From: Deltaproteobacteria bacterium
GTDB lineage: Bacteria > Desulfobacterota > GWC2-55-46 > UBA9637
Assembly (NCBI GenBank): GCA_030690165.1
Contig: JAUYHF010000007.1
Span: forward strand, 131,420-195,419
Length of the DNA: 64,000 nucleotides
Direction of reading: 5' to 3'
Of the stretch, positions 6,171 through 48,572 are shown in pieces. Position numbers and translations under genes: made by a program. The notes below the pieces were generated by a model. It ran no database searches, was not told where the DNA came from, and worked only from the letters and a program-made list of their open reading frames with translations. Position 1 is the first letter of the stretch. Each line of letters begins with the position of its first letter.

Positions 6171-6185
6171 AAACCGGAGGTTTTT

Positions 6186-6608
6186 ATGGAAGGTTTGGCA
6201 AAAGAGGCAGACAGGTGGTTTAGGCAGGCAGAGAATGATCTGAAGTCAGCAGGATGGAGCCAGCAGGGCGGTTTTTACGCGCATGCGTGTTTCTGGGCTC
6301 AACAAGGTGCTGCAAAGACGCTGCGGGCATTCCTGTTCATGCAAAAGGAGGATGCAAGGGAGACTCGTTCTGTCAGCGAACTCCTTGAAAGGTGCCTTAC
6401 ATACGATGAAGACTTTAAGGCAATTGTTGAATCCGGCAGCAGATTAGATATATATTACAAGACAAGCCGGTATCCTGACAGCCTTCCAGGCGGCATACCT
6501 GCCGAGATTATATCTGCCAGAGATTCCAAAGAGGCGATAAAGATCGCATCGGATATTTTTGCCCTTGTGGAGGAAAAGAGAAAGACGTATATTCCGGAAG
6601 TGATGTGA
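6186..6608 (+). CDS. HEPN domain protein, solo (no nucleotidyltransferase partner)
   Basis: 140 aa helical protein with the HEPN-family RYP signature (YYKTSRYPDSLPGG); own RBS GGAGG at 6176-6180; a position expected to be His is Arg (TRSV). Confidence 0.65.
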   Translation: MEGLAKEADRWFRQAENDLKSAGWSQQGGFYAHACFWAQQGAAKTLRAFLFMQKEDARETRSVSELLERCLTYDEDFKAIVESGSRLDIYYKTSRYPDSLPGGIPAEIISARDSKEAIKIASDIFALVEEKRKTYIPEVM

Positions 6609-6611
6609 AAC

Positions 6612-6699
6612 AGAGTCAAAGATTCAAAGAGTCATAGAGTCAAAATTTTGCTGCTGTTTCAATTACTCTGACTCTGCGACCCTCTGACTCTTTGACTCT
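6612..6699. repeat. octamer-unit repeat array; right terminal inverted repeat of the HEPN cassette (33-bp IR at 6612-6644)
   Basis: 6612-6644 AGAGTCAAAGATTCAAAGAGTCATAGAGTCAAA is the reverse complement of 6138-6170; a second inverted array at 6664-6699. Confidence 0.75.
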
Positions 6700-10767: not shown

Positions 10768-11112
10768 TTGCAGGAGAGCCCCTTGAATAAAGAAGCAGAT
10801 GAGAAAGAGGTTTTATCAGAGCTAAAGCATGCCATTATGGAGATTTGCGGCAAACAGGTAGTCAGGTTTGTGCTTTACGGCTCAAGGGCAAGGGGGGATT
10901 ACGACAAAGAGTCGGATATAGACATAGCGATTGTTGTCAGGGGTATGACAAGAGAACTTAAAAACCGGATATTAGATGCTGTGTGTGACATAGAGATTAA
11001 ATATCTTACTCCCCTTTCAACTCTTGTCTTTTCCGAGGAGGATTTTGAGTTTCTGAAAAGCAGGGAGAGAAGGATAGCCCTCGATATCGAAAGGGAAGGG
11101 ATACCGTTATGA
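10768..11112 (+). CDS. minimal nucleotidyltransferase (MNT), antitoxin-like
   Basis: GSRARGDYDKESDIDIAIV is the GS-Xn-DxD nucleotidyltransferase motif; TTG start; overlaps the next ORF by 4 nt. Confidence 0.7.
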   Translation: MQESPLNKEADEKEVLSELKHAIMEICGKQVVRFVLYGSRARGDYDKESDIDIAIVVRGMTRELKNRILDAVCDIEIKYLTPLSTLVFSEEDFEFLKSRERRIALDIEREGIPL

Positions 11113-11513
11113 CGGAAGGGAATAAGAAAGACAATATCAAGATTCAACTTGAGAAGGCATCCGAAATTTTAAAAGAGGCAAATTTGCTTTTTGAGAATAA
11201 CCTTGTAAGAGGCGCAGTTTCAAGGCTCTATTACTATCTGCTTCACACTGTCCGGGCGCTCCTTCTCACCAAAGGGCTTGAACCCAAAAGCCACGAAGGG
11301 GTGTTGAGGGTTTTCGGGCAATATTTTATAAGAGAGGGGATACTGGAGGCAAGGTTTTCCCATATATTCGCAAGGCTGATGAAATACAGGGAGGAGGCTG
11401 ATTACAACCCTGCCTATGTCGTTTCAAAAGATGATTTTGTGGAGTTCAGAAAAGAGGCAGAGGTTATGTGTGACAAGATAAACAGTTATCTGAAGCAGAA
11501 GGGATATGCCTGA
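11109..11513 (+). CDS. HEPN domain protein, partner of the upstream MNT
   Basis: 134 aa helical protein, translationally coupled to MNT (ATGA overlap); typical MNT-HEPN gene order. Confidence 0.65.
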   Translation: MTEGNKKDNIKIQLEKASEILKEANLLFENNLVRGAVSRLYYYLLHTVRALLLTKGLEPKSHEGVLRVFGQYFIREGILEARFSHIFARLMKYREEADYNPAYVVSKDDFVEFRKEAEVMCDKINSYLKQKGYA

Positions 11514-12744: not shown

Positions 12745-14304
12745 ATGGATATTAAGAGTTATCAAGATTTAGAAGTATGGCAGAAGGCAATGGATTTAGT
12801 CATGGAGTGTTACCAAATGACAAAAACTTTTCCTAAAAGTGAAACCTATGGAATAGTCAGTCAATTACAGCGCGCGGCCGTATCTATTCCAGCCAATATT
12901 GCTGAAGGGAGAAGTCGTCAACATACAAAGGAGTTTATCCAACACCTATCTATAGCATATGGGTCGCTTGCAGAATTAGAAACTCATATTCTGCTTGCTG
13001 AACGTCTGAATTATATAGAGGAAGAACAGGTAAAGGGGATTATGTCACAGGCAGCAGAACTTGGTCGAATGTTTAATGGGTTGCAAAAATCTTTAAGGAA
13101 AAGGGTTCAGGGTTCAGAAAGCAATTCTCTTATATCCGATCCCCGACCCCTGATCCCTGACCCCTGTAACAAAGGTTTTTCTCTTGTTGAACTCTTAATA
13201 GCAATGGTTATTGCCTCTGTTGTGGGGTTGGCAGGGATTTCCATATTCTCATCCAGCAACTGGTCGTATAAGACGCAGGAGGATGTAACAGAGGCGCAAC
13301 AGAATGTAAGGGTTGCCACGGACAGGCTTACAAAGGACATAAGGATGGCTGGTTATGGCCTGCCTGACCCGCCGTTTTCGCTCTCCTTCACCGGTCTTCC
13401 AACCACATTTGTCGGTCAATCCGGCGGCAACATAACCTTGACTTCACCGATTACGGTCACAACCAGCGGCGGAGCAGGCGCCCCTGATAGTTTGACCATC
13501 CTTGGGATTGGGTATGAAGTTGGGACATTGGACACCACTACAGCGGTTGTTAATTGCGTCAATGGTATTCAGGCAAATATTAGCGGAGCTAACTGCATCC
13601 GACTCAGTGCCACTGCGAGCGTCCCTGCGGCTGATACAATTGATAGATTTTTCCCCGGGGGGGCGTTTAACAGTAATAGAATGCATATCAGCCTTGGAGG
13701 GGCAAAATACATAGCGCTTGCCGCGGCAGGCCAGACCGGTCAGGCTACCAGAACATTAGCATTGGGAAGCCCATCTACCCTTGATAGAGACTATCCTGAC
13801 GGCACGTCCGTTTATATCGTACAGGCAGTTCAATATACGATAGTATCGGATACTTCTATTGCAGGATGTTCAAGTTCAAATCCGTGTTTGATAAGTTTGG
13901 ATGCTACTGGACTCCGGGGAATGAACGGGGGAGCGCCTTCCAGACAACTCCTTGCTGAAAATATAGAGGACATTCAGTTTGCATACGGCATAGACGCAAA
14001 CCCAAGGGACAAGAAGATAGACGATACAGACGGGGATGGCTCGTTCGAGGGTCTGGATTATATATTCGCCGAGGCGGGCGATACCTTATCAGATCCGTCA
14101 AGCATAATAGTTGTTCGGGCAACTGTTGTGGGAAGGACAAGGAATACAGATATTAAAGGGCAGACTGGTTTTAAGGCGCAGTGTTTCGAAGACCGCCCTG
14201 TTGATGCCGGCACTACTAACTGCACAGGCGCGGCATCCGATGGTTACAGGCGAAGGATATTGACAAAGGTTATAAAGATAAGAAATCCTAAGACAGGGGC
14301 GTAA
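12745..14304 (+). CDS. pilW: single ORF: N-terminal four-helix-bundle protein (23S rRNA intervening-sequence protein / Avd-like family) fused in-frame to PilW-like minor pilin
   Basis: Residues 1-120 (SYQDLEVWQKAMDL ... PKSETYGIVSQLQRAAVSIPANIAEG ... YGSLAELETHILLAERL) match the four-helix-bundle family; after a repeat-encoded linker comes the prepilin motif G/FSLVELLIAMVIASVVG and a PilW-like body; no stop codon between the two parts. Confidence 0.6.
   Translation: MDIKSYQDLEVWQKAMDLVMECYQMTKTFPKSETYGIVSQLQRAAVSIPANIAEGRSRQHTKEFIQHLSIAYGSLAELETHILLAERLNYIEEEQVKGIMSQAAELGRMFNGLQKSLRKRVQGSESNSLISDPRPLIPDPCNKGFSLVELLIAMVIASVVGLAGISIFSSSNWSYKTQEDVTEAQQNVRVATDRLTKDIRMAGYGLPDPPFSLSFTGLPTTFVGQSGGNITLTSPITVTTSGGAGAPDSLTILGIGYEVGTLDTTTAVVNCVNGIQANISGANCIRLSATASVPAADTIDRFFPGGAFNSNRMHISLGGAKYIALAAAGQTGQATRTLALGSPSTLDRDYPDGTSVYIVQAVQYTIVSDTSIAGCSSSNPCLISLDATGLRGMNGGAPSRQLLAENIEDIQFAYGIDANPRDKKIDDTDGDGSFEGLDYIFAEAGDTLSDPSSIIVVRATVVGRTRNTDIKGQTGFKAQCFEDRPVDAGTTNCTGAASDGYRRRILTKVIKIRNPKTGA
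13141..13159. repeat. right 19-bp inverted repeat flanking the four-helix-bundle gene, inside the ORF
   Basis: CCCCGACCCCTGATCCCTG, encodes part of the linker DPRPLIPDP. Confidence 0.7.
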
Positions 14305-18300: not shown

Positions 18301-19945
18301 TAACGCAGGGGTGTATACAGCAGGGGATAATGCAGTTACTACAGATGTAGAGCATGGCAAGTTTGTTCCAAATGCAACCACTGACTGGCCCGGTGTTGTA
18401 ATGGGTTCAGAATTATGGGCATTTATTCCCTATGATAACCTGCCTCATCTAAAGTGGCTTACAGATCCAAATTATACCCATATTTATTACACCGACCTCA
18501 AGCCAAAGGTGACGGATGTAAGGATATTCTGCGACAGCGATGCAAGTTTAACTCCGCCTACCACGCCTAATTGTATTGATGGGCAGACCGGCGTATCTCA
18601 CCCTGGCGGCTGGGGCACTATTCTGATTGCAGGCATGAGGTTTGGCGGAGGGGCGATAACTGCAGATATAAGCGGAACCACCAGGACATTCAGGTCTGCC
18701 TATTATGTCTTTGATATAACGAATCCTGAAAAGAAGCCGAAACTACTCTGGAGGTTTACTGACGCCAACCTCGGTTTTACAACCAGTTATCCCGGCATTA
18801 TCCATATAAACAGCAGTCCTGAGAAGTGGTTTATGGTGGTCGGTTCAGGGCCTGACAATAATGTCCCTGCTGGCACACGGGGCTATGATGGGACAAGCAC
18901 GCAGCAAGGCAGGATATTTGTCGTAAATCTTTTAAACGGGACAGCGGCAATTACATTTACCAATCTTGGAATAAACAATGCCGGCGCCGTCCTTGACGCC
19001 AATACATTCATGGGCGACCCGACTGTAATTGATGGCGATCTGGATTATACAACTGATGTAATTTATATAGGAAGCGCCACTTCTACAAACAGCGGGAAGG
19101 TATTCAGGATAAATACAAATCAGGATGCCAACCCGGCTAATTGGGCGTTATCAACCCTTATAAATCAGGGGAAACCGGTTCTTGTCGGGCCATCTGTGTC
19201 AAAGGACAGCCTTAATAACTTCTGGGTATTCTTTGGAACAGGGAGGTTTTTGGCTAGTGCTGATAAGACCAATTCTGACCCTCAAACCTTCTATGGTATA
19301 AAGGATGCATGTTGGAAAACGAATACGACAACAAGCCCTTGTCCTGCCTCTGCTAACCCATACCTGCAAACCGCTCTTCTTAATTCAAGCAATTTAGCAG
19401 TTTGCACATCCGCGGGCGGCGGGGGGATTTATGATACAAGTTCCGGAACTTGCGCAACCGGCACCCAGGCTTACAGTTCATATACCAACCTTCTTGCAAC
19501 AGTAAGGGCAGGCTCAGGTTGGTATATAAATCTGGTTGACCCAACGACTCCGAGTGAGAGGGTTATTGCCAGAAGCGTTGTCCTTGGAGGTGTAGTCATT
19601 TTTACCGCCTTTACACCCAGCAGTGATATATGCGCCATGTTAGGGGATAGCAACCTATATGCCCTATACTATGAGACAGGGACAGCCTATAATAAACCTG
19701 TGATAGGCTATAGCGGGACTACTGTACTGAGAAGCAAAAGCCTTGGCAAGGGGATGCCAACTACAGTAGGTATTGCTGTGGGCAGTAAAACAAAGGGTTA
19801 TATCCAGACTTCTACAGGCACAATAGTAGAGGTGGAAACAGAACCCGCCCTTGATGTGAGGAGCGGACCAGCAGGCTGGAGGGAAAAAGAGGGCGGCGGC
19901 GGGACAGTGGATATAGAGGAGATATATAAGCATATAGTTAAGTAG
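15365..19945 (+). CDS. pilY1: PilY1-like type IV pilus tip-associated adhesin
   Basis: 1526 aa; signal peptide; N-terminal vWA-like LVLDNSGSM; large C-terminal region; position after pilX. Confidence 0.8.
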   Translation: MKRLSIITILLGMILWTPLTCKVMAQTMSDYTSTPPFISTSIQPNVLLVLDNSGSMNDEAYATTYDPTQFSSGQYYGLFDATKYYQYTNNGRWEIFPVTDTDGDGIQTDETLPSASATIANPIASGNLLNWATMSRISVAKKLLIGGKASPRSPAGAVTVKLFGETTWGFLKTFDNTSSANLIAPFTGNYRYNVSSTANFSMVPVVAGTDTVYTSPNANVSIPAGWTVFPAATNAWEDVDDTISPTISNDADTTYIQAQGTASPAMFGYDYAGAKTGTITNVGVRVVAKSNCSSTLLRRTRGVLRIGGVDYDSGFTAIATSYPATAYSFNWATNPATGAAWQWSDIKDIGNPSGNLEGFGIRPNQSNAGCYHRATQVYLVVTSGTPSGGPYNIIIDQGMTPASGIIDNLSSDARFGLAYYANSSNGGRVQEYVGFGSAVNMITSISGLAPSTWTPLGETLYEMIRHFRQDAPFYANAPADYATGNVFNDPYYYRYSTLAGSGLTDQYVPCAKSFILLLTDGESTQDITMDASIKGPPGFSWGKGVNTDGSSTSSAAGQPRLGGTNNGQTYTSSGTDYLVDAAYWARSTDARPGACTTTPTSWQQCIPGTQNVVIYPVFMFGSGSTLLKDAAIYGGFEDMNGDGKPGPDLREYLRDSNGDGSVTAADDPITYFEGDDGFALEASITNAIASIMKRSASGTSVSILATSQEGEGALYQAYYYPEKIMDDGTKRSWLGYCRGMFLDSFGNLREDSDADSTLIFKNDKIIRMRLDTSTNEVKADLYNDVSPEDGDADPATLNADGSKIDTVNNTVAIDAVATLWEAGEKLAKDITTRNIYTWVDLDNDGVVDNGDFGVSPLPSGEAYPFVSSSATALRQYIRAADDPESTNIINFVAGNNVTGYRNRCIPVTGATTETGCSGATDRVWALGDIVYSTPTTVAGPREGYDQIYGIASYTNFRNLYRDRRNIVYVGANDGMLHAFNAGVYTAGDNAVTTDVEHGKFVPNATTDWPGVVMGSELWAFIPYDNLPHLKWLTDPNYTHIYYTDLKPKVTDVRIFCDSDASLTPPTTPNCIDGQTGVSHPGGWGTILIAGMRFGGGAITADISGTTRTFRSAYYVFDITNPEKKPKLLWRFTDANLGFTTSYPGIIHINSSPEKWFMVVGSGPDNNVPAGTRGYDGTSTQQGRIFVVNLLNGTAAITFTNLGINNAGAVLDANTFMGDPTVIDGDLDYTTDVIYIGSATSTNSGKVFRINTNQDANPANWALSTLINQGKPVLVGPSVSKDSLNNFWVFFGTGRFLASADKTNSDPQTFYGIKDACWKTNTTTSPCPASANPYLQTALLNSSNLAVCTSAGGGGIYDTSSGTCATGTQAYSSYTNLLATVRAGSGWYINLVDPTTPSERVIARSVVLGGVVIFTAFTPSSDICAMLGDSNLYALYYETGTAYNKPVIGYSGTTVLRSKSLGKGMPTTVGIAVGSKTKGYIQTSTGTIVEVETEPALDVRSGPAGWREKEGGGGTVDIEEIYKHIVK

Positions 19946-20003
19946 AAAGACAGGGGTCAGGGGTCGGAAAGACAGTGGTCAGGGGTCGGAAAGACAGTGG
20001 TCA

Positions 20004-20915
20004 GTGATTTTACTGATCCCTGACCCTCGATCCCTGTATCTATGGAGGGTATTTTTGGAAAAGAAGATATGGGAAGAAAGACGAAAGAAGAAGATTGTTC
20101 TGCCAAAGGAACCCGAATCTGAGAAAAAAGATTATAGAAGATGGACGAAGTATATTATTGCCGCTGTCTTTATTATCCTTTTATTTACCCTCTTAAGGGG
20201 CAAGAAAGAAAAGATAGAGATTCCAGGGCCGGAACAGGAATCAGGGGTCAGGGGTCAGGGGTCAGAAAAACAGGGGGCAGGGGTCGTGGCTCAGAGGTCA
20301 GTGAGTAGTCCAGTCGTTGAGCTGCCGCTGCCGCCTCCGCCTAAAAAAAATACCCCCCCGGAAGTCCTGTTAATAAAGTTAAGCCCAAAGATTGTTTACC
20401 AGGGAACCAAGATAAAGGCAGAGGTTTCAGGCAAGGATGCTGATGAGGATGATGAGGTTACCTATTTTTATGAGTGGCGGAGAAACGATACTGTCTTGCC
20501 TGATAATATCCAGCCGGAGATTGATACAAAGGATTTTAAGAAGGGCGAGCTTATAACCTTGTTTGTTACGCCGTTTGACGGCAAAGACAAGGGGAAGACC
20601 AGATTTTCCAGGACAATTGTTATTGTCAACAGGCCGCCTGAGATAATATCATTCCCGCCTGTGTCTGTTTCCAACGGGAAATATCTGTACGAGGTCAAGG
20701 CAAATGACCCGGATGGCGATGCGCTTACTTATTCTCTTGAAAATGCCCCGTCCGGCATGATAATTGATCCTGCAACAGGCATAATCCGATGGGATATCCC
20801 TGTTACGGCAGATTTAAAATCGGTTACTACCTACAATATAAAGATTGTGGTAAGCGATGGCGATGCCACGGCCTTTCAAGGGTTTTCCATGACCCCTGAT
20901 GTGGAAATTAAATAA
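20004..20915 (+). CDS. membrane-anchored protein with two Ig-like/cadherin-like domains
   Basis: TM segment WTKYIIAAVFIILLFTLL, repeat-encoded linker [13 protein letters not shown], then DADEDDEVTYFYEW and DPDGDALTYSLENAPSGMIIDPATGIIRWDIP; start uncertain (GTG 20004 or TTG near 20055). Confidence 0.5.
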   Translation: MILLIPDPRSLYLWRVFLEKKIWEERRKKKIVLPKEPESEKKDYRRWTKYIIAAVFIILLFTLLRGKKEKIEIPGPEQESGVRGQGSEKQGAGVVAQRSVSSPVVELPLPPPPKKNTPPEVLLIKLSPKIVYQGTKIKAEVSGKDADEDDEVTYFYEWRRNDTVLPDNIQPEIDTKDFKKGELITLFVTPFDGKDKGKTRFSRTIVIVNRPPEIISFPPVSVSNGKYLYEVKANDPDGDALTYSLENAPSGMIIDPATGIIRWDIPVTADLKSVTTYNIKIVVSDGDATAFQGFSMTPDVEIK

Positions 20916-21230: not shown

Positions 21231-22295
21231 ATGGAGCTTTCGCTGTTTAAAAAAACCGATGTGGTAGGTCTGGATATTGGCTCCAACTCTGTAAAACTTA
21301 TCCAGCTTGCCCCAACCAAAAAAGGGTGGAGGCTGTTAAATCTCGGCATAATCCAGCTTCCGCCAGAGGCTATTGTTGACGGCTCCATAATAGATTCTAT
21401 GACTGTCATGAGCGCTGTAAAGGACCTTGTCACCCAGCAGGGTATAAAGACTAAAAACTGCGTCTCCGCGCTGACAGGACATTCTGTTATTATCAAAAAG
21501 GTGAACCTCCCTGTGATGACTGAGGCAGAGTTGGGGGAATCTATTCAGTGGGAGGCAGAGCAGTATATACCCTTCCCCATAACAGATGTAAATATAGACT
21601 TTCAGATACTTGGCGCGGATACGGAAGGAAGAGGGCAGATGGAGGTAATGCTTGTTGCTGTAAAGAAGGATGTTATAAACGATTATACCAATGTCATAAA
21701 AGAGGCCGGGCTCCTGCCTGTGATTGTTGATGTGGATTCCTTTGCGCTGGAAAATATGTTTGAGATGAATTACTCCATTGCGCCTAATGAAAATATAGCA
21801 ATAGTGAATATCGGCGCAACCATTACAAGCATAAATGTTCTCCGCAGCGGCGTAACTATATTTACAAGGGCAATACCTCTTGGCGGGAACCAGTTTACGG
21901 AAGAGATACAGAAGGCCATTGGCATAAGTTTTAAAGACGCTGAAGCCATAAAGCTTGGCGGAGAGGTGAGCGGCATAGACGCAGGCGGCGTCCCTCAGGT
22001 GATTGAGCGGGTCTCAGGCAATGTTGCCCTTGAGGTTAAGAGGAGTATAGATTTTTTCCTCGGCGGCGCCCCCGGAATGTTTATCAGCAAGATTTATTTG
22101 AGCGGGGGCTGCACAAAGACAAAGGGCTTGCCGGCTATTATACAGGAGAGGACTGCAATACCTATTGAGATAGTCAACCCCTTTACCGGCGTGGAAGTAA
22201 GTCCCAGGAAATTTGCCCCTGATTATATTAAGGATATTGCGCCGTATTTTGGGGTTGCCGTCGGTCTGGCTATCAGGAAGGTTGGCGACAAATGA
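21231..22295 (+). CDS. pilM: type IV pilus assembly protein PilM
   Basis: Actin-like fold signature VGLDIGSNSVKLIQL; 354 aa; first gene of pilMNOPQ. Confidence 0.9.
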   Translation: MELSLFKKTDVVGLDIGSNSVKLIQLAPTKKGWRLLNLGIIQLPPEAIVDGSIIDSMTVMSAVKDLVTQQGIKTKNCVSALTGHSVIIKKVNLPVMTEAELGESIQWEAEQYIPFPITDVNIDFQILGADTEGRGQMEVMLVAVKKDVINDYTNVIKEAGLLPVIVDVDSFALENMFEMNYSIAPNENIAIVNIGATITSINVLRSGVTIFTRAIPLGGNQFTEEIQKAIGISFKDAEAIKLGGEVSGIDAGGVPQVIERVSGNVALEVKRSIDFFLGGAPGMFISKIYLSGGCTKTKGLPAIIQERTAIPIEIVNPFTGVEVSPRKFAPDYIKDIAPYFGVAVGLAIRKVGDK

Positions 22296-22861
22296 TAAGG
22301 ATAAACCTTTTACCAGTAAGGCTTGCAAAAAAGAAGGAGTCAATAAGGCAGCAGGCATCTGTGGCAGGTCTGAGCATTGTGCTGCTCTTTATAGTTCTTG
22401 GGGTTTTTTACTTTTCCATTACTAAGAGTATAGCTGAACTCAACGTCTCCATATCCGTCGAAGAAAAGAATATCGCCCAGTTTGATAAAGAGATAGGGGA
22501 ATTAAAAAATGTTGAAAGCGAAAAGAAGGCGATTTTGGAAAAGCTGAATATAGTCAAACAGCTTGAGATAGACAAACGACGGCACTTAAAGATATTTTCT
22601 GACATTACAGCCGCAATCCCTGAAAAACTGTGGATTGACTCTCTGAAGGATTCCGGACAAACTGTTACGCTGATTGGTTTTGCCGGGGCTGATGATATAG
22701 TGGCGGATTTTATGCGCCAGCTTGAAAAAACCCTTGTTTCATGGAAGGTTGAGCTTGAGGTTATAAATCAGGTGGAAAAGGAAAAAATAAAACTGGCGGG
22801 TTTTACTATCAGGCTTGAAGCGCCAAAAGGGCCGCCGCCTGCGGCCAAACCCAAGGCATAG
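22292..22861 (+). CDS. pilN: type IV pilus assembly protein PilN
   Basis: N-terminal RINLLP motif followed by a TM helix; overlaps pilM stop. Confidence 0.85.
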   Translation: MIRINLLPVRLAKKKESIRQQASVAGLSIVLLFIVLGVFYFSITKSIAELNVSISVEEKNIAQFDKEIGELKNVESEKKAILEKLNIVKQLEIDKRRHLKIFSDITAAIPEKLWIDSLKDSGQTVTLIGFAGADDIVADFMRQLEKTLVSWKVELEVINQVEKEKIKLAGFTIRLEAPKGPPPAAKPKA

Positions 22862-22917
22862 TTGTAGCTCAAGGCTTTAGCCTTGATAAACCTTCAAACC
22901 TGAAGGTTTGAGCTACA
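22862..22917. repeat. 56-bp structured palindromic element, copy 2 (between pilN and pilO)
   Basis: TTGTAGCTCAAGGCTTTAGCCTTGATAAACCTTCAAACCTGAAGGTTTGAGCTACAA; paralog of 9188-9243. Confidence 0.6.
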
Positions 22918-22940
22918 AATAGACCTTCTAAAGGAGTCTT

Positions 22941-23528
22941 GTGCCAAAGTTTGATGTAGATATAATACTTAAATTGTCCCTTTCTAAAAGGCTTTTGATA
23001 CTTGGGGCTGTCGTGCTTGTTATAACAGGGGTTTTTTATTATTTTTTATACGGCGCAAAATTAAATGAGAAAATCGCCTTAAGCGCAAAATTAGAGGGGT
23101 TTAAGAATACAGTTTCGGAAAAACAGAGGTTAGCCGCCAACCTTCCCAAATTAAAAAAAGAGATTGAGGATCTGAACAACCAGTTCAAACTGGCGCTTGA
23201 GGCCCTGCCCAACGAAAAAGAGATCGCCAATCTTCTCGAAAGCATATCTGATGCGGCTAAGACCGCAAGACTGGATATATTGACCTTTAAGCCGGGAAAG
23301 GAAACCCCAAAGGGTTTTTATGCCGAAGTGACGATAGATATGAAGGTGGAGGGCGGATACAACAGCGTTATTTCCTTCTTTGAAAAGGTTGCAGGGATGC
23401 CAAGGATAGTTAATATAAACGGCTTAAATATAACAAGCGGTAAAGAGGTCAGGGGTGATATTATGATGTCAGCTACTTTTGCAGCGACGACATTTAAGTT
23501 TCTGCCTCAGCCGGAGGCGAAGAAATAA
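22941..23528 (+). CDS. pilO: type IV pilus assembly protein PilO
   Basis: N-terminal TM helix, coiled-coil region, position and size (195 aa). Confidence 0.85.
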   Translation: MPKFDVDIILKLSLSKRLLILGAVVLVITGVFYYFLYGAKLNEKIALSAKLEGFKNTVSEKQRLAANLPKLKKEIEDLNNQFKLALEALPNEKEIANLLESISDAAKTARLDILTFKPGKETPKGFYAEVTIDMKVEGGYNSVISFFEKVAGMPRIVNINGLNITSGKEVRGDIMMSATFAATTFKFLPQPEAKK

Positions 23529-23529
23529 T

Positions 23530-24120
23530 ATGGGTAATTTACAAGTCACCAGTTATAAGTCACCAGTCACCAGTCACAAGACTAAAAACTCAAGTCTGGT
23601 GACTTTGTGTCTGGCGACCTTGTGTCTGGCGACCTTGTGTGTCGGTTGCCAGCAAGGCGCGCCGCCACAGCCCCCTGCGGCAGAGGTAAAAAAAGAGGCT
23701 CCGAAACCGGAGACTGTGCCTATTGCTGGAGAGGCAAAAAAAGAAGAGAAGGCTCCGCCTAAAGCGGATGAGGTAAATCCGCAGAGAAATCCTTTTAAAA
23801 CATTTATTGTTAAAGCAACCGAGAGGCCGTCAGTTGTTGCGCCAAAGACGCCTTTACAGAGGTATGAACTGGAGCAGCTAAAATTAGTGGCAATAATGTG
23901 GGGCATTAACAGCCCCGCAGCCATGGTGGAGACACCGGACGGCAAAGGCTATTCAATAAAAAAAGGATACCTTATCGGGAACAGGGAAGGAAGGGTTAAG
24001 CGGATTGAAAAGGACAGGGTGATAGTGGAGGAGAGGTTTACAGAGGCCCGCGGCGAGGTTGTAACCAACGAGTTTGAAATAAAACTGCCGCTGCCCAAAG
24101 GAGAGGAGGAGTTAAGATGA
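23530..24120 (+). CDS. pilP: type IV pilus assembly lipoprotein PilP
   Basis: Position between pilO and pilQ; Cys-containing signal region (LCVGC); Pro/Ala-rich linker; N-terminal 40 codons are built from inverted heptamer/15-mer arrays, so start is uncertain. Confidence 0.7.
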   Translation: MGNLQVTSYKSPVTSHKTKNSSLVTLCLATLCLATLCVGCQQGAPPQPPAAEVKKEAPKPETVPIAGEAKKEEKAPPKADEVNPQRNPFKTFIVKATERPSVVAPKTPLQRYELEQLKLVAIMWGINSPAAMVETPDGKGYSIKKGYLIGNREGRVKRIEKDRVIVEERFTEARGEVVTNEFEIKLPLPKGEEELR

Positions 24121-27002
24121 AAAATAAAAATGTAAAATGCAAAATGCAAAATACAAAAGGTTTCCTTCCATATTTTATATTCTGCCTGCTGCTTACTATA
24201 TTTTTTACAGGTTGCGCGCCTACTAAGTCGCAGATAAAGAGTGGAGAGGGAGTGGAAAAGGCAGCCATTGAGAAGATTTCGGTTGTTGGAGGGGGGAGGG
24301 AGATATTGATAGAGGCTTCAGGGCCTATAACCTACACTGCCTTTAAGCTTTCTGACCCGGCAAGGCTGGTGCTGGATATTCCAGGGGCAGATATAGAAAA
24401 GGTAAAGGCCCCGATGGATGTTAATAATGAGTTTATAAACAGGATTGTTGTCGCAAGCTACGGGGAGGAGGGAATGGCGCCCATTTCCAGAGTGGAAATA
24501 GGGTTAAAGGAGAGGGTAGCCAGTGATGTAAAGCTCGCAGAAGGCAGTATTCTGGTGGCTTTGAATTATGAAGTTATTCCCCAGCATGAGGCTGAGACAC
24601 CTGTTGTGGTTGAGCCCCAAGTGGCAGAGGAAAAGGCCGCCGAGGCGCCGCCTTTAACAGAGCCCCTCCAGCAGGAGATTGCAAAAAAAGAAGAAGCCAT
24701 AAAGGCGGCTGTGGAAGAGGCCGGCCCTGCCCTTGCTGAGGCTGAAAAGAAAGAGATAAAAAAGGCTGACAAATTGTTGAAGATAGAGACGAGGAAGGAA
24801 AAGAACCGCACAATAATAAAGGTGATTGGCAACGGGCCGATAGGCGATTTTAATGCCTTTACAATGGATAAGCCTGCGCCGTCAAGGATTGTTGTGGATG
24901 TATGGAATGTTAAGAGTTCAATTCCGGGAGACGGTCTTGCTGTAAGCAGTCCTTATGTAAAGAAGGTAAGGGTAGGTGAACATCCGGATAAGGTGAGGCT
25001 CGTGTTTGATTCAGGCCAGAAGAATGTGCCGCCCTATACAATAGAGAGGGTTGACAACTCCCTTGTAATAACTGTCGGCAGGATTGATGTAAAGAAGCCT
25101 GAAACAGCCGCAGTAGTTGCTCCGGTAACTGCGCCGCAAGAGCCTCCTGTGGAAACAGCACAGCAGCCTTCGGCAGCCGTGCCCGCTCCTGAACCTGTAA
25201 AGGCCGATTATGCAGAAATCAAGGCGGTTGATTTCAAGCAGCTTGCGGATAAGGCAAGGCTTATTATAACTGCGTCAAAGAAGATAGAATACAGATTGTT
25301 AAAATTACCGGATGAAACAGGACTGGCGCTGGATATTAAGGATGCTATAATACCTGACGAACTCAAACGGACACTCGACGCCTCTGACCTTAACACGCCA
25401 GTGGCCAGCATAAGCTCATTCCAGGCGACTACTGAGTCTGCAAAGGATGTCCGTATACTTGTTAAATTAAAAGAAAAGGCTATTTATGATATTTCACAGG
25501 AAGGCGAAAGAATACAAATAGATTTTCCGCTGCTCGCAGCGGCGCAGGCGGTTCCAAAGATGGCAGAGATAAAAAGTCAGGAGTCAGAGCTCAGGGGCCT
25601 GCCCCCGAATGTTTCTATCGGGGGTCAGGAGATAAAAGAAACAAAGCTGGCAGAAGATGCTATAAACAAGGAACAGGCATCAGGCTATACAGGACGCAAG
25701 ATTTCTCTGGACTTTAAGGATGCTGATATAAGTAATATTTTGAGATTGATGGCAGAGGTCAGCAATCTGAATATTATTGCGGGCGAGGATGTTAAAGGCA
25801 AGGTTTCGTTAAGATTGATAGATGTTCCATGGGATCAGGCATTCGAGATCATATTAAAAACAAACGGTCTTGGCAAGGTTCAGGAAGGGAATGTAGTAAG
25901 GATTTTGCCCCTTGCTAAGATAAAACAGGAGAGTGAAGATGCGCTTGCCTCTAAAAAGGCAAAGGAAAAACTTGAAGACCTTGAGATAAAATTGCTGTCT
26001 GTCAACTACGCAACTGCCAGCGCTTTAGAATCCCAGGTCAAAGGCTTATTAAGCGATAGGGGGACTGTTACAGTAGAGGCAAGGACGAATACGCTTATTA
26101 TTAAAGATATCCCTGCCAATATAGCAAAGGCAGTGGACATGGCAAAGAAATTGGATACGCCGACGCCGCAGGTCTTGATAGAGGCAAGGATCGTAGAGGC
26201 GCAGAGCAGTTTTGCAAGGGACCTCGGTGTGCAGTGGGGCGCTGCTACTCTTACAACAAGCAAAAATAAGTTTAGCAGCGGGTTTGGCAGCGCTTCGGCT
26301 ACCCCATCGCCCACCCTTACCCCCACTAGTACCACTACCACCCCCACTACCCCCAGTTTTATCAGCTCAGGGGGGCAGTTCTCATCGCAGCCTAATTTTG
26401 CGGTAAGCCTTCCTGCGGCGGGCGCTGCAGGGACATTGGGCGCAATGGGTTTTTCGTTCGGTAAACTTATAGGCGACCCGTTTCTTTTAGACCTCCGCAT
26501 ATCAGCCGGCGAAAAAAATGGTTTGACAAAGACCATATCAAGGCCGAGGATTACCACACTGAATAATAAGGAGGCCAAAATATCTCAAGGCGACTCAGTG
26601 CCATTTGAAACAACATCTTCTTCTGGCACACAAACCTCTTTTATTGATGCAACACTTGAACTCATTGTTACTCCGCATATAACCCCGGACGGCAGCGTGA
26701 GCATGAAAATCAAGGCCAGCAGGAACTCAATAGGCTCTTTCAGATCTGCTGCCGGTACGCCGAGCATAAGCAAAAAAGAGGCGTCTACAGAGATAATTGT
26801 AAAAAGCGGGGAGACAGCGGTTATCGGCGGCATTGTGATAGAGGATAAGTCAGATACCGGCAGCGGCATACCATGGCTTAAGGATATCCCTATACTCGGC
26901 TGGCTCTTTAAAAACAAATCAACATCAGAAAGCCAGACAGAGCTCCTGATATTTATTACGCCGAATATTGTAAGCGGCGAAGTGGAGTTGTCGCCAAGTT
27001 AA
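24117..27002 (+). CDS. pilQ: type IV pilus secretin PilQ
   Basis: 961 aa; signal peptide; repeated N-terminal beta domains; C-terminal secretin domain (NTLIIKDIPANIAKAVDMAKKLD ... VLIEARIVEA ... LLIFITP). Confidence 0.9.
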   Translation: MKNKNVKCKMQNTKGFLPYFIFCLLLTIFFTGCAPTKSQIKSGEGVEKAAIEKISVVGGGREILIEASGPITYTAFKLSDPARLVLDIPGADIEKVKAPMDVNNEFINRIVVASYGEEGMAPISRVEIGLKERVASDVKLAEGSILVALNYEVIPQHEAETPVVVEPQVAEEKAAEAPPLTEPLQQEIAKKEEAIKAAVEEAGPALAEAEKKEIKKADKLLKIETRKEKNRTIIKVIGNGPIGDFNAFTMDKPAPSRIVVDVWNVKSSIPGDGLAVSSPYVKKVRVGEHPDKVRLVFDSGQKNVPPYTIERVDNSLVITVGRIDVKKPETAAVVAPVTAPQEPPVETAQQPSAAVPAPEPVKADYAEIKAVDFKQLADKARLIITASKKIEYRLLKLPDETGLALDIKDAIIPDELKRTLDASDLNTPVASISSFQATTESAKDVRILVKLKEKAIYDISQEGERIQIDFPLLAAAQAVPKMAEIKSQESELRGLPPNVSIGGQEIKETKLAEDAINKEQASGYTGRKISLDFKDADISNILRLMAEVSNLNIIAGEDVKGKVSLRLIDVPWDQAFEIILKTNGLGKVQEGNVVRILPLAKIKQESEDALASKKAKEKLEDLEIKLLSVNYATASALESQVKGLLSDRGTVTVEARTNTLIIKDIPANIAKAVDMAKKLDTPTPQVLIEARIVEAQSSFARDLGVQWGAATLTTSKNKFSSGFGSASATPSPTLTPTSTTTTPTTPSFISSGGQFSSQPNFAVSLPAAGAAGTLGAMGFSFGKLIGDPFLLDLRISAGEKNGLTKTISRPRITTLNNKEAKISQGDSVPFETTSSSGTQTSFIDATLELIVTPHITPDGSVSMKIKASRNSIGSFRSAAGTPSISKKEASTEIIVKSGETAVIGGIVIEDKSDTGSGIPWLKDIPILGWLFKNKSTSESQTELLIFITPNIVSGEVELSPS

Positions 27003-27202
27003 TGGATGTATGAAACATCCATGAGCCTTTGGCTCACAAAGAAGGATGAAAATTAACCCCACCCTCACCTGAAACATCCATTGAGGATGTTTCAGTCCTC
27101 TCCCTGAGGGAGAGGAGACTTTTTTGTTCCCTCCCCTTCAAGGGGAGGGTTAGGGTGGGGATGGGGTAAAGAGGGTATTTTCAGGTGAAAATATCGTTTT
27201 AA

Positions 27203-27230
27203 ATGCACCCTCAAAGGGTGCATTTTTTTT
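27203..27230 (+). terminator. rho-independent terminator after pilQ
   Basis: ATGCACCC-TCAAA-GGGTGCAT stem-loop followed by T8; A-tract upstream makes it potentially bidirectional. Confidence 0.7.
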
Positions 27231-27392
27231 GAAGAATATGATATGATACCTTTTTTGTCATTCCCGCATATTTTTAGCGGGAATCCATATTCGTTCCTGC
27301 TAAGGCAGGGAACCGGATAAAATCAAAACATGGATTTCCGATAAAGGCTTCGGAAATGATAGAAAGAAATAGATTTTTTTATAGGAGCTCAT

Positions 27393-28628
27393 ATGCTGAG
27401 ATACTTAACAGCAGGTGAATCACACGGTAAATATTTGACTGCCATTCTGGAAGGCGCGCCGGCAAATCTTAATTTGGCTGCGGATGATATAAATAAAGAA
27501 CTAAGCCGCAGGCAGATTGGCTACGGCCGCGGCGGCAGAATGGCTATTGAAAAAGATGAAGCAGAGATTACATCGGGGGTAAGGTTTGGCAAGACCATAG
27601 GTTCGCCTATTGCTATGGTTATAAAAAATAGAGATTGGGAGAATTGGAAAGAGGTTATGAATACAGGGGTCAGGGGTCAGGGGTCAGGGGTCAAAGAGAT
27701 TACCCATCCAAGGCCGGGCCATGCGGATCTGGCAGGCGCCTTGAAATATGGCCAGTATGATATTCGCAATATTCTTGAACGTTCCAGCGCAAGGGAAACC
27801 GCGGCGCGGGTTGCTGTTGGCGCAGTATGTAAAAGATTTCTGGATGAGATTGGGATAAAAGTGATGAGTTGGGTGGTGGATATAGCAGGGGTCAGGGGTC
27901 AGGGGTCAGGGGTCAGAGAGGAGAATGATATAGAAGCAATTTTTAAACTGGCAGAAGCATCTGATGTGCGTTGTCCTGATAAAAAGATTGCAGAAAAAAT
28001 GAGAAAGGCGATAGATAGGGCAAGAAAAAACGGCGACAGCCTTGGCGGGATATTTGAGGTTGCTGTAACCGGCGTTCCTCCGGGTCTTGGAAGCCATGTC
28101 CAGTGGGATAGAAAATTAGATGGGAATCTGGCAAGGGCGCTTATGAGCATTCAGGCCATAAAAGGGGTTGAGGCGGGTATAGGGTTTGAAGCGGCTGAGA
28201 GATTTGGATCAGAGGTGCATGATGAGATATTTTATAAAATCTCCCCTGACCCCTCTTTGCCAAAGAGGGGAAAATCATCTCCCCCTTTGGAAAAGGGGGA
28301 TAAAGGGGGATTTTACAGAAAAACCAACAATGCCGGCGGCATAGAGGGAGGCATGAGCAACGGCGAACCGATTATACTCCGGGCTGCGATGAAACCGATA
28401 CCAACATTATATAAACCGCTTCGGTCAATAGATATAAAAACAAAAAAGCAGTTTCAGGCAAGTGTTGAAAGGTCGGATATATGCGCTGTGCCTGCTGCTT
28501 CAGTGGTTGGCGAGGCAGTTGTTGCCTTTGAGATAGCCAATGCCTTTATAGATAAATTTGGCGGCGATTCTATCTATGAGGTAAAAAGGAATTATAAGGG
28601 GTATCTGGAGTATTTGAGGAAGTTTTAA
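27393..28628 (+). CDS. aroC: chorismate synthase
   Basis: [30 protein letters not shown] motifs; 411 aa, about 50 aa longer than typical because of three repeat-encoded in-frame insertions. Confidence 0.9.
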
Positions 28629-29129
28629 ATGAAGAACATAATCCTTACTGGTTTTATGGGAACTGGCAAGACATCAGTTGGAAAACGTCTTGCCAAAGAA
28701 TTAAATCTCAAATTCATTGATACGGATGATTTGATAGAAAAAGAGGCAGGGATATACATAAATGAGATATTTACAAAATTTGGCGAGACATATTTCAGAC
28801 AATTGGAATCAAAGGTGATAAATGAAGTGTTTCCTGGTGCGAATATGATAATTGCCACCGGAGGCGGGGCTGTTGTCAATCCCCTAAATCTTCTTGCATT
28901 GAAAAAAAACGGGATTCTGATATGTTTAACTGCTTCAATTGATGTTATTCTTTCAAGGGTAGGGAGCGGCGATGAAAGGCCGCTTATTTCCGAAGACGAT
29001 AAAAAGGGGGCAATATCCAATCTCCTGAAGGTAAGAGAGCCATTTTATAAAAAGGCGGATTTTATTGTTGATACGACTACAAAAACTGTCGGTGAGGTAG
29101 TGGAGGAGATAAAGAAGATAGTGAGCTAA
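28629..29129 (+). CDS. aroK: shikimate kinase
   Basis: Walker A GFMGTGKTSVG; 166 aa; start abuts aroC stop. Confidence 0.85.
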   Translation: MKNIILTGFMGTGKTSVGKRLAKELNLKFIDTDDLIEKEAGIYINEIFTKFGETYFRQLESKVINEVFPGANMIIATGGGAVVNPLNLLALKKNGILICLTASIDVILSRVGSGDERPLISEDDKKGAISNLLKVREPFYKKADFIVDTTTKTVGEVVEEIKKIVS

Positions 29130-29175
29130 TATGGTAGTCTGCCGATTTATCGGCGCTTTTAAAAGACGCCCATAA

Positions 29176-30282
29176 ATGGGCATACTACATATGGAACGCA
29201 TTACTGTAAATCTTGGTGAGCGAAGCTATCCAATCTATATCGGGAGAAATAATCTCGATATGGTGGGAGAGTTGATGAAGCAGAAAGGTCTTAATGGCAA
29301 AGCAGCCTGTATTACAAATCCTACGGTAGGGAAACTTTATGGCAACAGGGCGCTTGATAGTCTTGGCAAGGCAGGTTTTGAGGTTTTCAGAATAGATATC
29401 CCTGACGGCGAAGAGTACAAAAGCCTTGAATGGCTCTCGCATATATATGATAAACTTATTGAATATAAGATGGAGAGGCAATCCCCTATTGTTGCCCTTG
29501 GCGGCGGCGTTGTAGGGGATATTGCAGGTTTTGCGGCAGCTACATACTTAAGGGGTGTGCCGTATATTCAGGTTCCAACGACACTCCTGTCCCAGGTTGA
29601 CAGTTCTGTCGGCGGCAAGACTGGGGTGAATCATCCAAAGGGCAAAAACCTTATAGGCGCATTCTATCAGCCAAAGATGGCGCTTTTAGATGTGGATGTT
29701 CTTAAGACGCTTGGAGAGAGGGATATAAAGGCGGGCTTGGCTGAAGTTATTAAATATGGTATTATCAAGGACGCCGGTTTCTTCTCGTTTTTAGAGGAAA
29801 ATTATGCGGATGTTCTCAAACTGGGAGATAGCCTGCTGCATGTTGTAAAGGTGTCATGCGGGATAAAGGCGCGGGTGGTTGAAGAGGATGAGAGGGAGGC
29901 GGGCATAAGGTCAATACTTAACTTTGGACATACATTCGGCCATGCAGTAGAGACCGTGACCGACTATAAGGAGTTAAGGCACGGCGAGGCAGTTGCCATC
30001 GGCATGGCTGCTGCCGCAAGGCTCTCTTTTAAACTCGGCCTGTGCAGTAAAGATGTTTGCGAAAGGATAGAAAGATTGGTATCAAAGATTGGTCTTCCCA
30101 TAAAGCTATCAGCTGTCAGCCGTCAGCTATCAGCTAAAGAATTATTACAGGCTATGGAGATGGATAAAAAGGCGGCTGGAGGAAATATAAAGTTTGTGAT
30201 GGTGGAAGATATTGGCAAGGTAATATTTAAACAGATGGGAAGAGCGGATTTTTCCATTGACTTATCAGAGATTTTAAACTAA
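29176..30282 (+). CDS. aroB: 3-dehydroquinate synthase
   Basis: GGGVVGDIAGFAAATYLRGVPYIQVPTTLLSQVDSSVGGKTGVN; alternative start ATG 29191; in-frame heptamer array 30105-30135. Confidence 0.88.
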   Translation: MGILHMERITVNLGERSYPIYIGRNNLDMVGELMKQKGLNGKAACITNPTVGKLYGNRALDSLGKAGFEVFRIDIPDGEEYKSLEWLSHIYDKLIEYKMERQSPIVALGGGVVGDIAGFAAATYLRGVPYIQVPTTLLSQVDSSVGGKTGVNHPKGKNLIGAFYQPKMALLDVDVLKTLGERDIKAGLAEVIKYGIIKDAGFFSFLEENYADVLKLGDSLLHVVKVSCGIKARVVEEDEREAGIRSILNFGHTFGHAVETVTDYKELRHGEAVAIGMAAAARLSFKLGLCSKDVCERIERLVSKIGLPIKLSAVSRQLSAKELLQAMEMDKKAAGGNIKFVMVEDIGKVIFKQMGRADFSIDLSEILN

Positions 30283-30371
30283 ATATAAGCACAGTATTAA
30301 AAACTCAACTCAAAACTCAATCTGTATTTTCTAATTCCTGATTTTCCCCTGTTTTTTATTATTTTCTTATT

Positions 30372-30896
30372 ATGGAACACATAGAAGAAACAGTTATAGA
30401 GGAAGATGGCGGAGAAGACTGGCTGCCTGATGATAAATTCTATACATTGACAATGGCGGGGGTTTTAGAGAGACAGGGCCTTAAAAAAGGCGCTAAGAAA
30501 ATCCACGAAACTTTGCTTATGAAGGGGGGGCAAAAAATGGGATTTCTCGAAATATTAAAAGATATGGTTGACAATGTAAAGGGCGGGGTTGCAGGCACTG
30601 TCATGGCTAAAGATGGTATTGCAATACAGAACTATGTAAAAGACAAGGCTGCCTATGATATGGATTCTGTTGGTGTGGAATATGGCAGAATATTAGAGGA
30701 GACAAAAAATGCGTCTTCTATGCTTAAGCTTGGCGAGGTGGATGAGTTATCTGTAACGGCAGAAGGGTCTACTGTCATAATGAGGCTTATAAATAAGGAC
30801 TATTTTATAGCAATTGTGCTTGGGCCTGAAGGCAACTTTGGGAAGGCAAGATATTACTTAAAAAGGGCGGCAGCCGGTGTCAGAAAGGAGTTTTAA
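30372..30896 (+). CDS. Roadblock/LC7-domain protein (MglB-like)
   Basis: C-terminal 110 aa fit the Roadblock/LC7 pattern (GVAGTVMAKDGIAIQ ... GKARYYLKRAA); acidic N-terminal extension. Confidence 0.45.
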   Translation: MEHIEETVIEEDGGEDWLPDDKFYTLTMAGVLERQGLKKGAKKIHETLLMKGGQKMGFLEILKDMVDNVKGGVAGTVMAKDGIAIQNYVKDKAAYDMDSVGVEYGRILEETKNASSMLKLGEVDELSVTAEGSTVIMRLINKDYFIAIVLGPEGNFGKARYYLKRAAAGVRKEF

Positions 30897-33896: not shown

Positions 33897-33939
33897 CTCC
33901 CCCTAACCCCCTCTTTGATAAAGAGGGGGAATAATAACT

Positions 33940-47777: not shown

Positions 47778-48572
47778 ATGAAAACTGAAGAAGATAAATT
47801 TAAACACGAAATAGATATTTTCCGAACTGAAGTCGAATCTGGCATACAATTCTTCTATATGTATCTGGCATTTAATTCCGTCCTTAGTAAGAATAAACAA
47901 GCTCTAAAAATAGTAAATCGAACGCCTTTATTTTGGAACACGAATGTTGGTGCTCTACAGACCTCTTTTTTTATCGTATTGGGACGACTTTTTGACCAAA
48001 ACTCCAACCACAATGTTGATAGGTTGATAGGAGTTGCCCAAAAGCATTCTGATATTTTTTCTGCAGAGGCATTGGAAGTTCGTAAGCGAGCAGGGAGTGC
48101 AAATGCAGGTGAATGGATAAATGACTACATGAAAGACGTTTATGTCCCAACTAACGATGACTTCAGACGCCTGAGAAAATATGTTAGCAAGTATCGCAAA
48201 ATTTATGAGAACACATATCGGGATATAAGGCACAAGGTATATGCTCATAAAGTGCTATCAAATAAGGCTGATGTGCATAATTTATTTGCACGGACCAACA
48301 TTCGTGAAATACAAAAACTATTGATTTTTCTGAATCGAGTTCATGAAGCTCTTTGGCAACTTTTCCATAATGGTCGCAAACCTACATTGAGGGCAATGAA
48401 ATACTCAGTCAGTAGTATTATGAAAAATGTTCTGGCTCCAGAATGGCAAAGCCGACAGATTCAAGAACTGGTGGTGCATGAGACCCAAAAGTTTTTCGAC
48501 ATATTATTATCTATACCCAATAAGCGAGAACAGGAAAAGGACAGGACACTCTACAGGTTGAAGGAACAGTAA
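47778..48572 (+). CDS. uncharacterized protein, possible HEPN-like (Abi-type) defence protein
   Basis: 264 aa, mostly helical; R-x5-H motif RDIRHKVYAH; sits in an accessory islet; assignment tentative. Confidence 0.35.
   Translation: MKTEEDKFKHEIDIFRTEVESGIQFFYMYLAFNSVLSKNKQALKIVNRTPLFWNTNVGALQTSFFIVLGRLFDQNSNHNVDRLIGVAQKHSDIFSAEALEVRKRAGSANAGEWINDYMKDVYVPTNDDFRRLRKYVSKYRKIYENTYRDIRHKVYAHKVLSNKADVHNLFARTNIREIQKLLIFLNRVHEALWQLFHNGRKPTLRAMKYSVSSIMKNVLAPEWQSRQIQELVVHETQKFFDILLSIPNKREQEKDRTLYRLKEQ

Follow-up and report, generated by a model that had tools for sequence, protein, structure and literature searches.

Three variable loops of a chorismate synthase from an uncultivated deltaproteobacterium are encoded in frame by heptamer arrays and a palindromic element

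The window analysed here is a stretch of 64,000 nucleotides (nt) of contig JAUYHF010000007.1, from the genome assembly GCA_030690165.1 of a deltaproteobacterium. On its plus strand, at 27393–28628, lies aroC, which encodes chorismate synthase within a conserved pilMNOPQ-aroC-aroK-aroB arrangement. Three loops of this enzyme are encoded by small repeats: tandem heptamer arrays in loops 1 and 2, and a composite palindromic element in loop 3. The gene is a single intact open reading frame (ORF) of 411 residues. Its product matches the Pfam profile Chorismate_synt (PF01264) at 3.5e-125 over profile positions 1–326 of 327 and is identical to the NCBI record MDP2681579.1, 'MAG: chorismate synthase [Deltaproteobacteria bacterium]' (MAG, metagenome-assembled genome). 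Its best solved relative is the Aquifex enzyme (1q1l, 8.6e-144), and the Streptococcus pneumoniae enzyme matches at 2.5e-117 (1qxo). We aligned the window protein with 39 relatives at 65–86% identity. Across these 40 sequences H11, R39/R40, R46, R49, R107, H110, S131–R134, R360 and D362 are invariant, and the window protein has them all, together with the motifs SHG, RRQxGYGRGxR, PRPGHAD, SARET and ERSD. The catalytic roles of these residues are those known for the S. pneumoniae enzyme. The original prediction, made from the letters of the window, that the repeats leave the reading frame and the AroC motifs intact is thus borne out, and the protein would be expected still to work as a chorismate synthase. 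In almost all sequences of the alignment, each of the three loops is hypervariable and of low complexity.

Loops 1 and 2 each carry an exact array of the same heptamer. Tandem Repeats Finder reports (CAGGGGT)x4.3 over 30 nt at 27664–27693 in loop 1 and (CAGGGGT)x4.4 over 31 nt at 27886–27916 in loop 2, both on the plus strand with a 100% match, and direct reading likewise gives the predicted GGGGTCA x4 arrays, in frame. Each is translated as an 11-residue peptide (residues 91–101 and 165–175). The pattern of three such units occurs seven times in the window, with 0.00 expected from dinucleotide-preserving shuffles. The loop 1 array lies immediately 5' of the catalytic PRPGHAD motif. The loop 2 array is a direct, not inverted, repeat of it, with identical unit, phase and orientation, and lies 222 nt downstream. 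At this distance of 74 codons, recombination between the two arrays would remove the catalytic PRPGHAD region in frame, so that the paired identical arrays are a deletion hazard built into an essential gene.

Loop 3 was originally described as two adjacent palindromes at 28250–28300. Both are present (CCCCTCTTTGCCAAAGAGGGG at 28250–28270 and TCCCCCTTTGGAAAAGGGGGA at 28280–28300, together encoding 19 residues; expected 0.00 and 0.01 times, respectively, in dinucleotide-preserving shuffles), but they are better described as the two inner hairpins of one plus-strand element of 79 nt at 28236–28314, with terminal inverted repeats AAAATCTCCCC/GGGGGATTTT, that folds as a unit. As RNA it forms one nested structure (-45.7 kcal/mol, z = -5.4), and it is read in frame as (K) plus 25 residues. 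It begins with CCCCTGACCCC, equal to 1.6 units of the inverted array, and its ends, AAAAT... and ...GATTTT, coincide with native aroC sequence (TTTTATAAAAT, GATTTTAC). No clear target-site duplication was found at these ends. Two 'FY' codon pairs beside loop 3 were considered as such a duplication and rejected, both being native and conserved in relatives that are free of the element.

The same element occupies loop 3 in two related loci, L002 and L007, where 60-nt windows over it are 95–96% identical to ours, compared with 67–69% nucleotide identity over the rest of aroC. A mismatch-free 79-nt copy lies between genes on two Hainich aquifer contigs (L008, 2196–2278; L011, 1940–2010) that are binned as a Nitrospiria MAG; either the element has crossed between lineages or the contigs are misbinned. 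Replacement by short homology at both ends and transfer of an allele between lineages would both fit the sequence at loop 3. Exact-pattern scans of genome and metagenome collections found the element at one locus each, the same intergenic site on the two Hainich contigs. A search with the doubled peptide gave no clear in-frame hosts, only eight weak matches to tiny ORFs. We therefore rejected the idea that the element is an abundant mobile repeat: it is rare, with a single other locus in the collection scans.

Describing all three segments as insertions is correct in part. Compared with the solved AroCs, loop 3 has a net gain of about 19–20 residues, the only gain among the three; loop 1 is within one residue of the Aquifex and S. 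pneumoniae loops, and loop 2 is four residues shorter than the Aquifex loop and three longer than that of S. pneumoniae. Compared with the closest relatives, all three segments are replacements. At loop 3, for example, the element stands in place of a heptamer array and a clade-typical xFWPxxPR motif; the closest relatives, L004 and L009, have an AAGTCAC array followed by the clade-typical FWPLESR. 'Three insertions' is an overstatement because the repeats overwrite loops that are already variable across the AroC family, and the three loops coincide with regions rich in insertions and deletions relative to the solved AroCs. We also modelled the protein with AlphaFold2 from the 40-sequence alignment. 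In this model, of mediocre overall quality (mean predicted local distance difference test score (pLDDT) 73), pLDDT falls below 50 over residues 92–111 (loop 1) and 284–303 (loop 3), and ten-residue blocks in loop 2 average 83 and 61, a pattern that fits flexible loops. A search of the structural literature on chorismate synthase loops found nothing relevant.

To see what other genomes hold at these positions, we compared the window at the DNA level with nine related loci that conserve the pilMNOPQ-aroC-aroK-aroB synteny. Arrays of about 30 nt occur at the same three sites in the relatives, and their units differ. Loop 1 holds GGGGTCA in the window (degenerate in L006), GGGGCAA in L001 and L005, GGAGTTG in L003, GAATGCG in L004 and a palindromic element in L002 and L007. 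Loop 2 holds GGGGTCA in the window, GTTCAAA in L001, GGGTCAA in L003, GAATGCG in L009, and composites of array, hairpin and array in L002, L005, L006 and L007; in L005 a hairpin of about 24 nt (CCTGCCCCCGCAGG...) is embedded in a GGGGTCA array. Loop 3 holds AAGGGGC in L001, AGAAGTC in L003 and L006, AAGTCAC in L004 and L009, and the 79-nt element in the window, L002 and L007. One unit can recur in different loops of a genome: GGGGTCA in loops 1 and 2 of the window, GGGGCAA in loops 1 and 3 of L001 and AGTCAGA in loops 2 and 3 of L006. In the conserved blocks of aroC, L004 matches the window at 92–100% identity; it differs from the window in all three loops, with sharp boundaries.

An array of heptamers read in frame yields a peptide of period seven, and such peptides are common at these sites in the wider family. 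Among 120 AroC homologues we found 92 period-7 peptide runs, with 3–22 runs for the other periods from 2 to 12, except for 45 at period 10. The three loops account for 86 of the period-7 runs (30, 26 and 30), and at least one such run is present in 53 proteins. Among 119 proteins there are about 70 distinct peptide clusters per loop. Loop content is replaced rapidly as the rest of the protein diverges: over the three loops, 91–94% of protein pairs share the loop peptide when core amino-acid identity is at least 98%, 27–47% share it at 95–98%, 20–36% at 90–95% and 0% below 80%.

These comparisons bear on two other explanations of the loops. The segments could be ordinary loop sequence conserved in the AroC clade, or artefacts of assembling a repeat-rich MAG, given that loops 1 and 2 have similar lengths in the solved AroCs and that repeats can mislead assemblers. 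We consider this extremely improbable. The comparison with orthologues showed that only the positions of the loops are conserved across relatives, their sequences being lineage-specific; the protein matches the NCBI record exactly; the reading frame is kept in all variants; and different samples, assembled independently, yielded the loop 3 element (L002 from NCBI, L007 from ENA, L008/L011 from Hainich). The roughly 70 versions of each loop, their rapid turnover and the hydrophilic, loop-like character of the peptides might instead suggest that the loops are adaptive at the protein level, for instance as surface patches of high variability or as flexible linkers, with diversity itself under selection. 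This is very unlikely, since AroC is a cytosolic biosynthetic enzyme under no obvious diversifying pressure, the same repeats turn over between genes and in unrelated genes, and the peptide simply follows from the nucleotide unit that a loop happens to carry, all three reading frames being used.

The most detailed view of turnover comes from L009, a contig 95–97% identical to the window over about 9 kb (window 21735–30610). The alignment is broken at nine places, aroC loops 1 and 3 among them, and arrays or hairpins make up seven of the nine; a further difference lies in aroC loop 2. Within coding sequence, the length differences are 39, 27, 21, 15 and 0 nt, all multiples of three; between genes they are 70, 175, 150 and 263 nt. 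Together with the membership of the aroC segments in the genome's own dispersed repeat families, this supports the earlier suggestion that spread of repeats into coding sequence is tolerated when it is frame-neutral. Three features are present in the window and absent from L009: a palindrome of 68 nt with terminal inverted repeats GTTGTAGCTCAA/TTGAGCTACAA (22861–22928); a GC-rich hairpin cluster of 170 nt in the pilQ-aroC gap (27016–27185, plus strand), flanked by a TGAAA direct repeat and containing terminator-like hairpins; and a hairpin-rich insertion of 139 nt directly upstream of the aroC start (27235–27373, plus strand). L009 alone has a 257-nt hairpin cluster between aroC and aroK. Two segments of pilQ are also swapped, at 24625–24671 (47 versus 8 nt) and at 26274–26387 (114 versus 87 nt); they are not obviously derived from repeats or heptamers, and the second encodes a low-complexity loop rich in Thr, Pro and Ser.

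At loop 1, the L009 allele has lost more than the loop. A palindrome (CCCTCCCCCCTTGCGGGGGAGGG, L009 5474–5523) replaces loop 1 together with a nearly invariant helix segment of 11 residues, leaving the ORF in frame and seven residues shorter at this point. This allele may be damaged or unusually tolerant. Repeat events thus stray to some extent beyond permissive sequence, and the filtering must come from selection.

The pilO-pilP junction shows replacement of units at an intergenic site. In the window it carries an array hairpin of (AGTCACC)n and (GGTGACT-like)n on the plus strand (23531–23643; -45.3 kcal/mol, z = -5.1), and L009 holds a (CAGTGGT)4 hairpin there. The 5' array is CAGTGGT x4.4 in L009 (1752–1782) and CAGTTAT x5.4 in L010 (2392–2429), all units having changed together, whereas the spacer and the 3' arm are shared. 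Read as protein, the 3' arm (window 23594–23640; L009 1800–1850) forms the hydrophobic core of the signal peptide of the lipoprotein PilP (MRLVLFLLVTVHWSLFTILTGC in L009), so that repeat DNA here supplies a functional signal sequence.

Period-7 arrays are a general feature of this DNA. Under a strict filter, the window contains six period-7 arrays and none or one for each other period from 4 to 12. In 137 kb comprising the window and relatives, Tandem Repeats Finder gave 61 period-7 arrays, 20 of period 8, 18 of period 14 (twice 7) and at most 12 of any other period. The lengths of the 61 period-7 arrays peak at 29–34 nt regardless of base composition, and 159 kb holds 89 arrays of at least three copies with more than 60 different units. 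Most units are not G-rich. Arrays in frame also occur in argJ, a histidine kinase gene, an NtrC-like regulator gene (within the receiver domain), a lipoate-protein ligase gene and aroB, where (AGCTATC)x4.7 on the plus strand (30104–30136) encodes KLSAVSRQLSAK and the unit is kept in L001, L003 and L006. A (GGGGTCA)x3.6 array at 20241–20265 (plus strand) is read in frame as SGVRGQGS in an ORF of uncertain start codon (20004–20915), upstream of a He_PIG Ig-like domain.

Intergenic arrays often have an inverted partner, as at 6091/6140, 6612/6666, 19945/20013 and 23544/23594, with folds of z = -4.2 to -7.7. The predicted intergenic hairpin relatives of the aroC repeats were found at two places on the plus strand, both folding strongly: after pilY1, at 19945–20036, a GGGGTCA/CAGTGGT array with inverted CTGATCC/CTGACCC (region 19945–20045, -45.6 kcal/mol, z = -4.2), and between accC and the lipoate-protein ligase gene, at 33908–33928, a copy of the loop 3 palindrome with two mismatches (CCCCTCTTTG..CAAAGAGGGG; -16.8 kcal/mol, z = -3.2). 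A generic census of short palindromes was dominated by AT-rich chance palindromes. The arrays are unevenly spread, with about 17 of at least three copies in window positions 1–33000, among type IV pilus, arg, aro and acc genes, and one in 33001–64000 (61331–61362). A compositional island was considered as the cause and rejected, as there is no shift in GC content.

Similar architectures have been described in Geobacter metallireducens, in which the 'H4' element comprises four tandem heptanucleotide repeats (GGGACCG/GGACCGG) and is also found within genes, and in which paired sites on opposite strands carry five heptanucleotide (MTYCTGA) or four octanucleotide repeats (Aklujkar et al. 2009, PMC2700814). 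The host of the present arrays is likewise classed as a deltaproteobacterium of subsurface habitats. The likeness, one of element architecture, extends to four tandem 7-nt units, to opposite-strand pairs able to form hairpins, and to the CTGA/TCAG core, contained in the MTYCTGA consensus and enriched in units here (TCAG/CTGA in 25% versus about 5% expected; CAG/CTG in 52% versus about 20%). The Geobacter families differ in having one dominant GC-rich unit each and in being read as regulatory. Here near-identical genomes can have different units at one and the same position, and arrays fill the variable loops of core enzymes in frame.

As the Geobacter elements are annotated as putative global regulatory sites, the arrays here could be binding sites of a global regulator or nucleoid protein that reads DNA of 7-bp periodicity, with the aroC copies reflecting regulation. 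The weak shared core and the narrow distribution of array lengths are consistent with this. However, a sequence-specific binder would not tolerate the variety of units in 159 kb or their differing at the same site between genomes that are 96% identical; the arrays also lie in the middle of unrelated housekeeping genes, and no candidate binding protein was identified in the window. We regard such a role as improbable.

The original prediction also offered the alternative that the repeats are selected as RNA structures inside mRNAs. Arrays and hairpins in the aroC-aroK-aroB mRNA or DNA, as a G-quadruplex (G4) and the loop 3 stem-loop, could tune translation speed, mRNA stability, transcription pausing or operon polarity. 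The sense-strand (GGGGTCA)4 does match the canonical G4N3G4N3G4N3G4 motif. G-rich heptamers with a preference for four units are known from Xanthomonas (GGGAATC) and Nostoc (GGGGA(C/T)T) and form G4s in vitro; they vary between close species, are 7–11% intragenic and 89–93% intergenic, and are under-represented on the coding strand (Rehm et al. 2015, PMC4692102). Our arrays resemble them in the heptamer unit, the strong four-unit preference, frequent convergent inverted pairs, G4-compatible units such as GGGGTCA, and the way in which length and sequence vary at a given intergenic site from one close species to the next; they differ in that many here lie in frame on the sense strand of housekeeping genes. 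Heptamers of the STRR type were also reportedly described in cyanobacteria by Mazel et al. in 1990. The stable fold of the loop 3 element, and terminator-like predictions on the minus strand that overlap it, could likewise point to a selected structure.

Several observations speak against selected structure. No canonical RNA fold was obtained for the arrays of loops 1 and 2 (z = +1.4 and +1.5), and the 691-nt segment 27640–28330 is no more structured than its shuffles (z = -0.6). Relatives hold at the same sites units that are unrelated, not G-rich and unstructured (GTTCAAA, AAGTCAC, GAATGCG), some of them AT-rich, or nothing comparable, and we found no RNA structure conserved across relatives at the three aroC loops. 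The length of about four units is shared by AT-rich units unable to form G4s, so that G4 formation cannot explain the preference. Long-range pairing of the (GGGGUCA)4 arrays with CCCCUGACCCC, the complementary stretch that opens the loop 3 element, was considered and rejected, as the element pairs with itself in the 691-nt fold. Selection for RNA or DNA structure, with the regulatory tuning it would entail, is therefore unlikely in our view, and the alternative as first proposed is not upheld.

The aroC segments are best explained as local cases of a population of small repeats found throughout the genome and the lineage, comprising heptamer arrays of about four units (about 31 nt) and short GC-rich palindromic elements. 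We consider it probable that these repeats are non-adaptive DNA with fast turnover, held by purifying selection to frame-preserving, stop-free changes in the permissive loops of aroC. Repeats would arise, copy between loci of one genome and swap between alleles, probably by slippage or template switching and by recombination that uses short homologies in the flanks as anchors. Purifying selection in an essential gene would then remove events that break the frame, introduce stops or disturb the fold, as the pattern among the surviving alleles suggests. Under such selection the repeats would persist only in the three loops that are variable across the AroC family, overwriting what was there before, and the peptides that they encode would probably be passive, flexible loop filler.

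Several points weigh against this explanation. The loop 3 element is rare and lacks convincing in-frame hosts, unlike a prolific mobile element. The loop 1 event in L009 deletes a nearly invariant segment and so is not strictly confined to permissive sequence, and in the window loop 1 directly precedes the catalytic R107/H110 motif, where an effect on catalysis is possible. Not all arrays turn over fast, the aroB unit being the same in four genomes. Simple slippage does not account for the array length of about 31 nt, which is the same whether the units are rich in G or in AT. Position is kept while units change even between genes, as at the pilO-pilP junction; selection can hardly fix such a position, which suggests a process of replacement in situ beyond random insertion plus a filter. 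Finally, neutrality and retained enzyme activity, like the copying mechanism, are deduced here from patterns among sequences.

Non-adaptive turnover under purifying selection thus leaves unexplained the fixed positions with changing units, the co-changing hairpin arms, the length of about 31 nt and the uneven spread over the window. A dedicated process that rewrites array to array, by templated repeat synthesis or site-directed conversion, could swap all units for another genome-specific unit, perhaps recognizing the existing array through the shared CAG/TCAG core. If real, it would cover the fixed position with changing unit, the joint change of both hairpin arms, the fixed length and the occurrence of the same units at unrelated loci. 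We regard it as a speculative option with a small chance of being correct, and favour the non-adaptive explanation given above.

For the loop 3 element, the closest conceptual match is the Rickettsia palindromic elements (RPEs). As described in PMC10969869 (reporting Ogata et al. 2000, 2002), these are hairpin-forming selfish DNA found in frame in unrelated metabolic genes whose proteins remain intact, and it has been proposed that fold and function can accommodate the insertions. Like an RPE, the element at 28236–28314 is palindromic and is read through in frame within an intact gene. RPEs differ in being about 100–150 bp long, in forming defined families with conserved peptides and in being true insertions; with another phylum and another element size, homology to their families would not be expected. 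The loop 3 element has 79 nt, is rare and replaces the resident loop between short homologies (AAAAT ... GATTTT), and most in-frame repeats here are tandem heptamers, not palindromes.

Hairpin elements of 21–27 nt nested in tandem heptamer arrays of cyanobacteria are said to have been described by Elhai et al. in 2008. The hairpin within the GGGGTCA array in loop 2 of L005, and the inverted-array units with which the loop 3 element opens, recall that nesting, in another phylum and with other sequences. The palindromes further resemble REP, REPIN and MITE elements: they are short and GC-rich, often cluster downstream of genes, differ in presence among close relatives, and can have short direct repeats at their flanks (TGAAA, at 27016–27185) and terminal inverted repeats (the loop 3 element and 22861–22928). 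REPs are classically extragenic. The palindromes differ from these classes in that target-site duplications are not clear and in that a Pfam scan of 41 larger ORFs of the window found no transposase, RAYT, Y1 domain or reverse transcriptase.

Some further genes of the window were noted. A HEPN-domain gene between argJ and a prepilin peptidase gene (6186–6608) is bracketed by period-8 array hairpins at 6091–6171 and 6612–6699 (AGAGTCAG x4 followed by TGACTCTA x4; -41.1 kcal/mol, z = -7.7); gene and hairpins together look like a small cassette. The ORF at 12745–14304 joins a 23S rRNA intervening-sequence protein (residues 7–112, with an additional sub-threshold bAvd-like match in this N-terminal part) to a PilW-type minor pilin (N-methylation motif at residues 142–163). 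The joint crosses heptamer arrays at 13102–13166, and the ORF is probably two genes fused in frame through stop-free repeat sequence. A toxin–antitoxin-like pair of nucleotidyltransferase and HEPN genes (10768–11513) and an AbiU2-type HEPN gene (47778–48572) also lie amid housekeeping genes.

Compared with the literature, what appears to be new is that many different units repeatedly come to occupy the same loops of a protein, and that their turnover has a half-life of only a few percent of core divergence. The notion of selfish DNA in coding sequence, known from Rickettsia and noted in Geobacter, thereby comes to include tandem arrays of heptanucleotides, here in a groundwater lineage that has not been cultivated. 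For annotation, the finding is a warning that low-complexity loop peptides in conserved proteins of these lineages are repeat read-through rather than functional motifs, and for metagenomics that repeat loci are hotspots of strain-level difference. With about 70 peptides recorded per loop, the AroC family provides a natural experiment in how much repeat-derived sequence an essential enzyme tolerates, and where.

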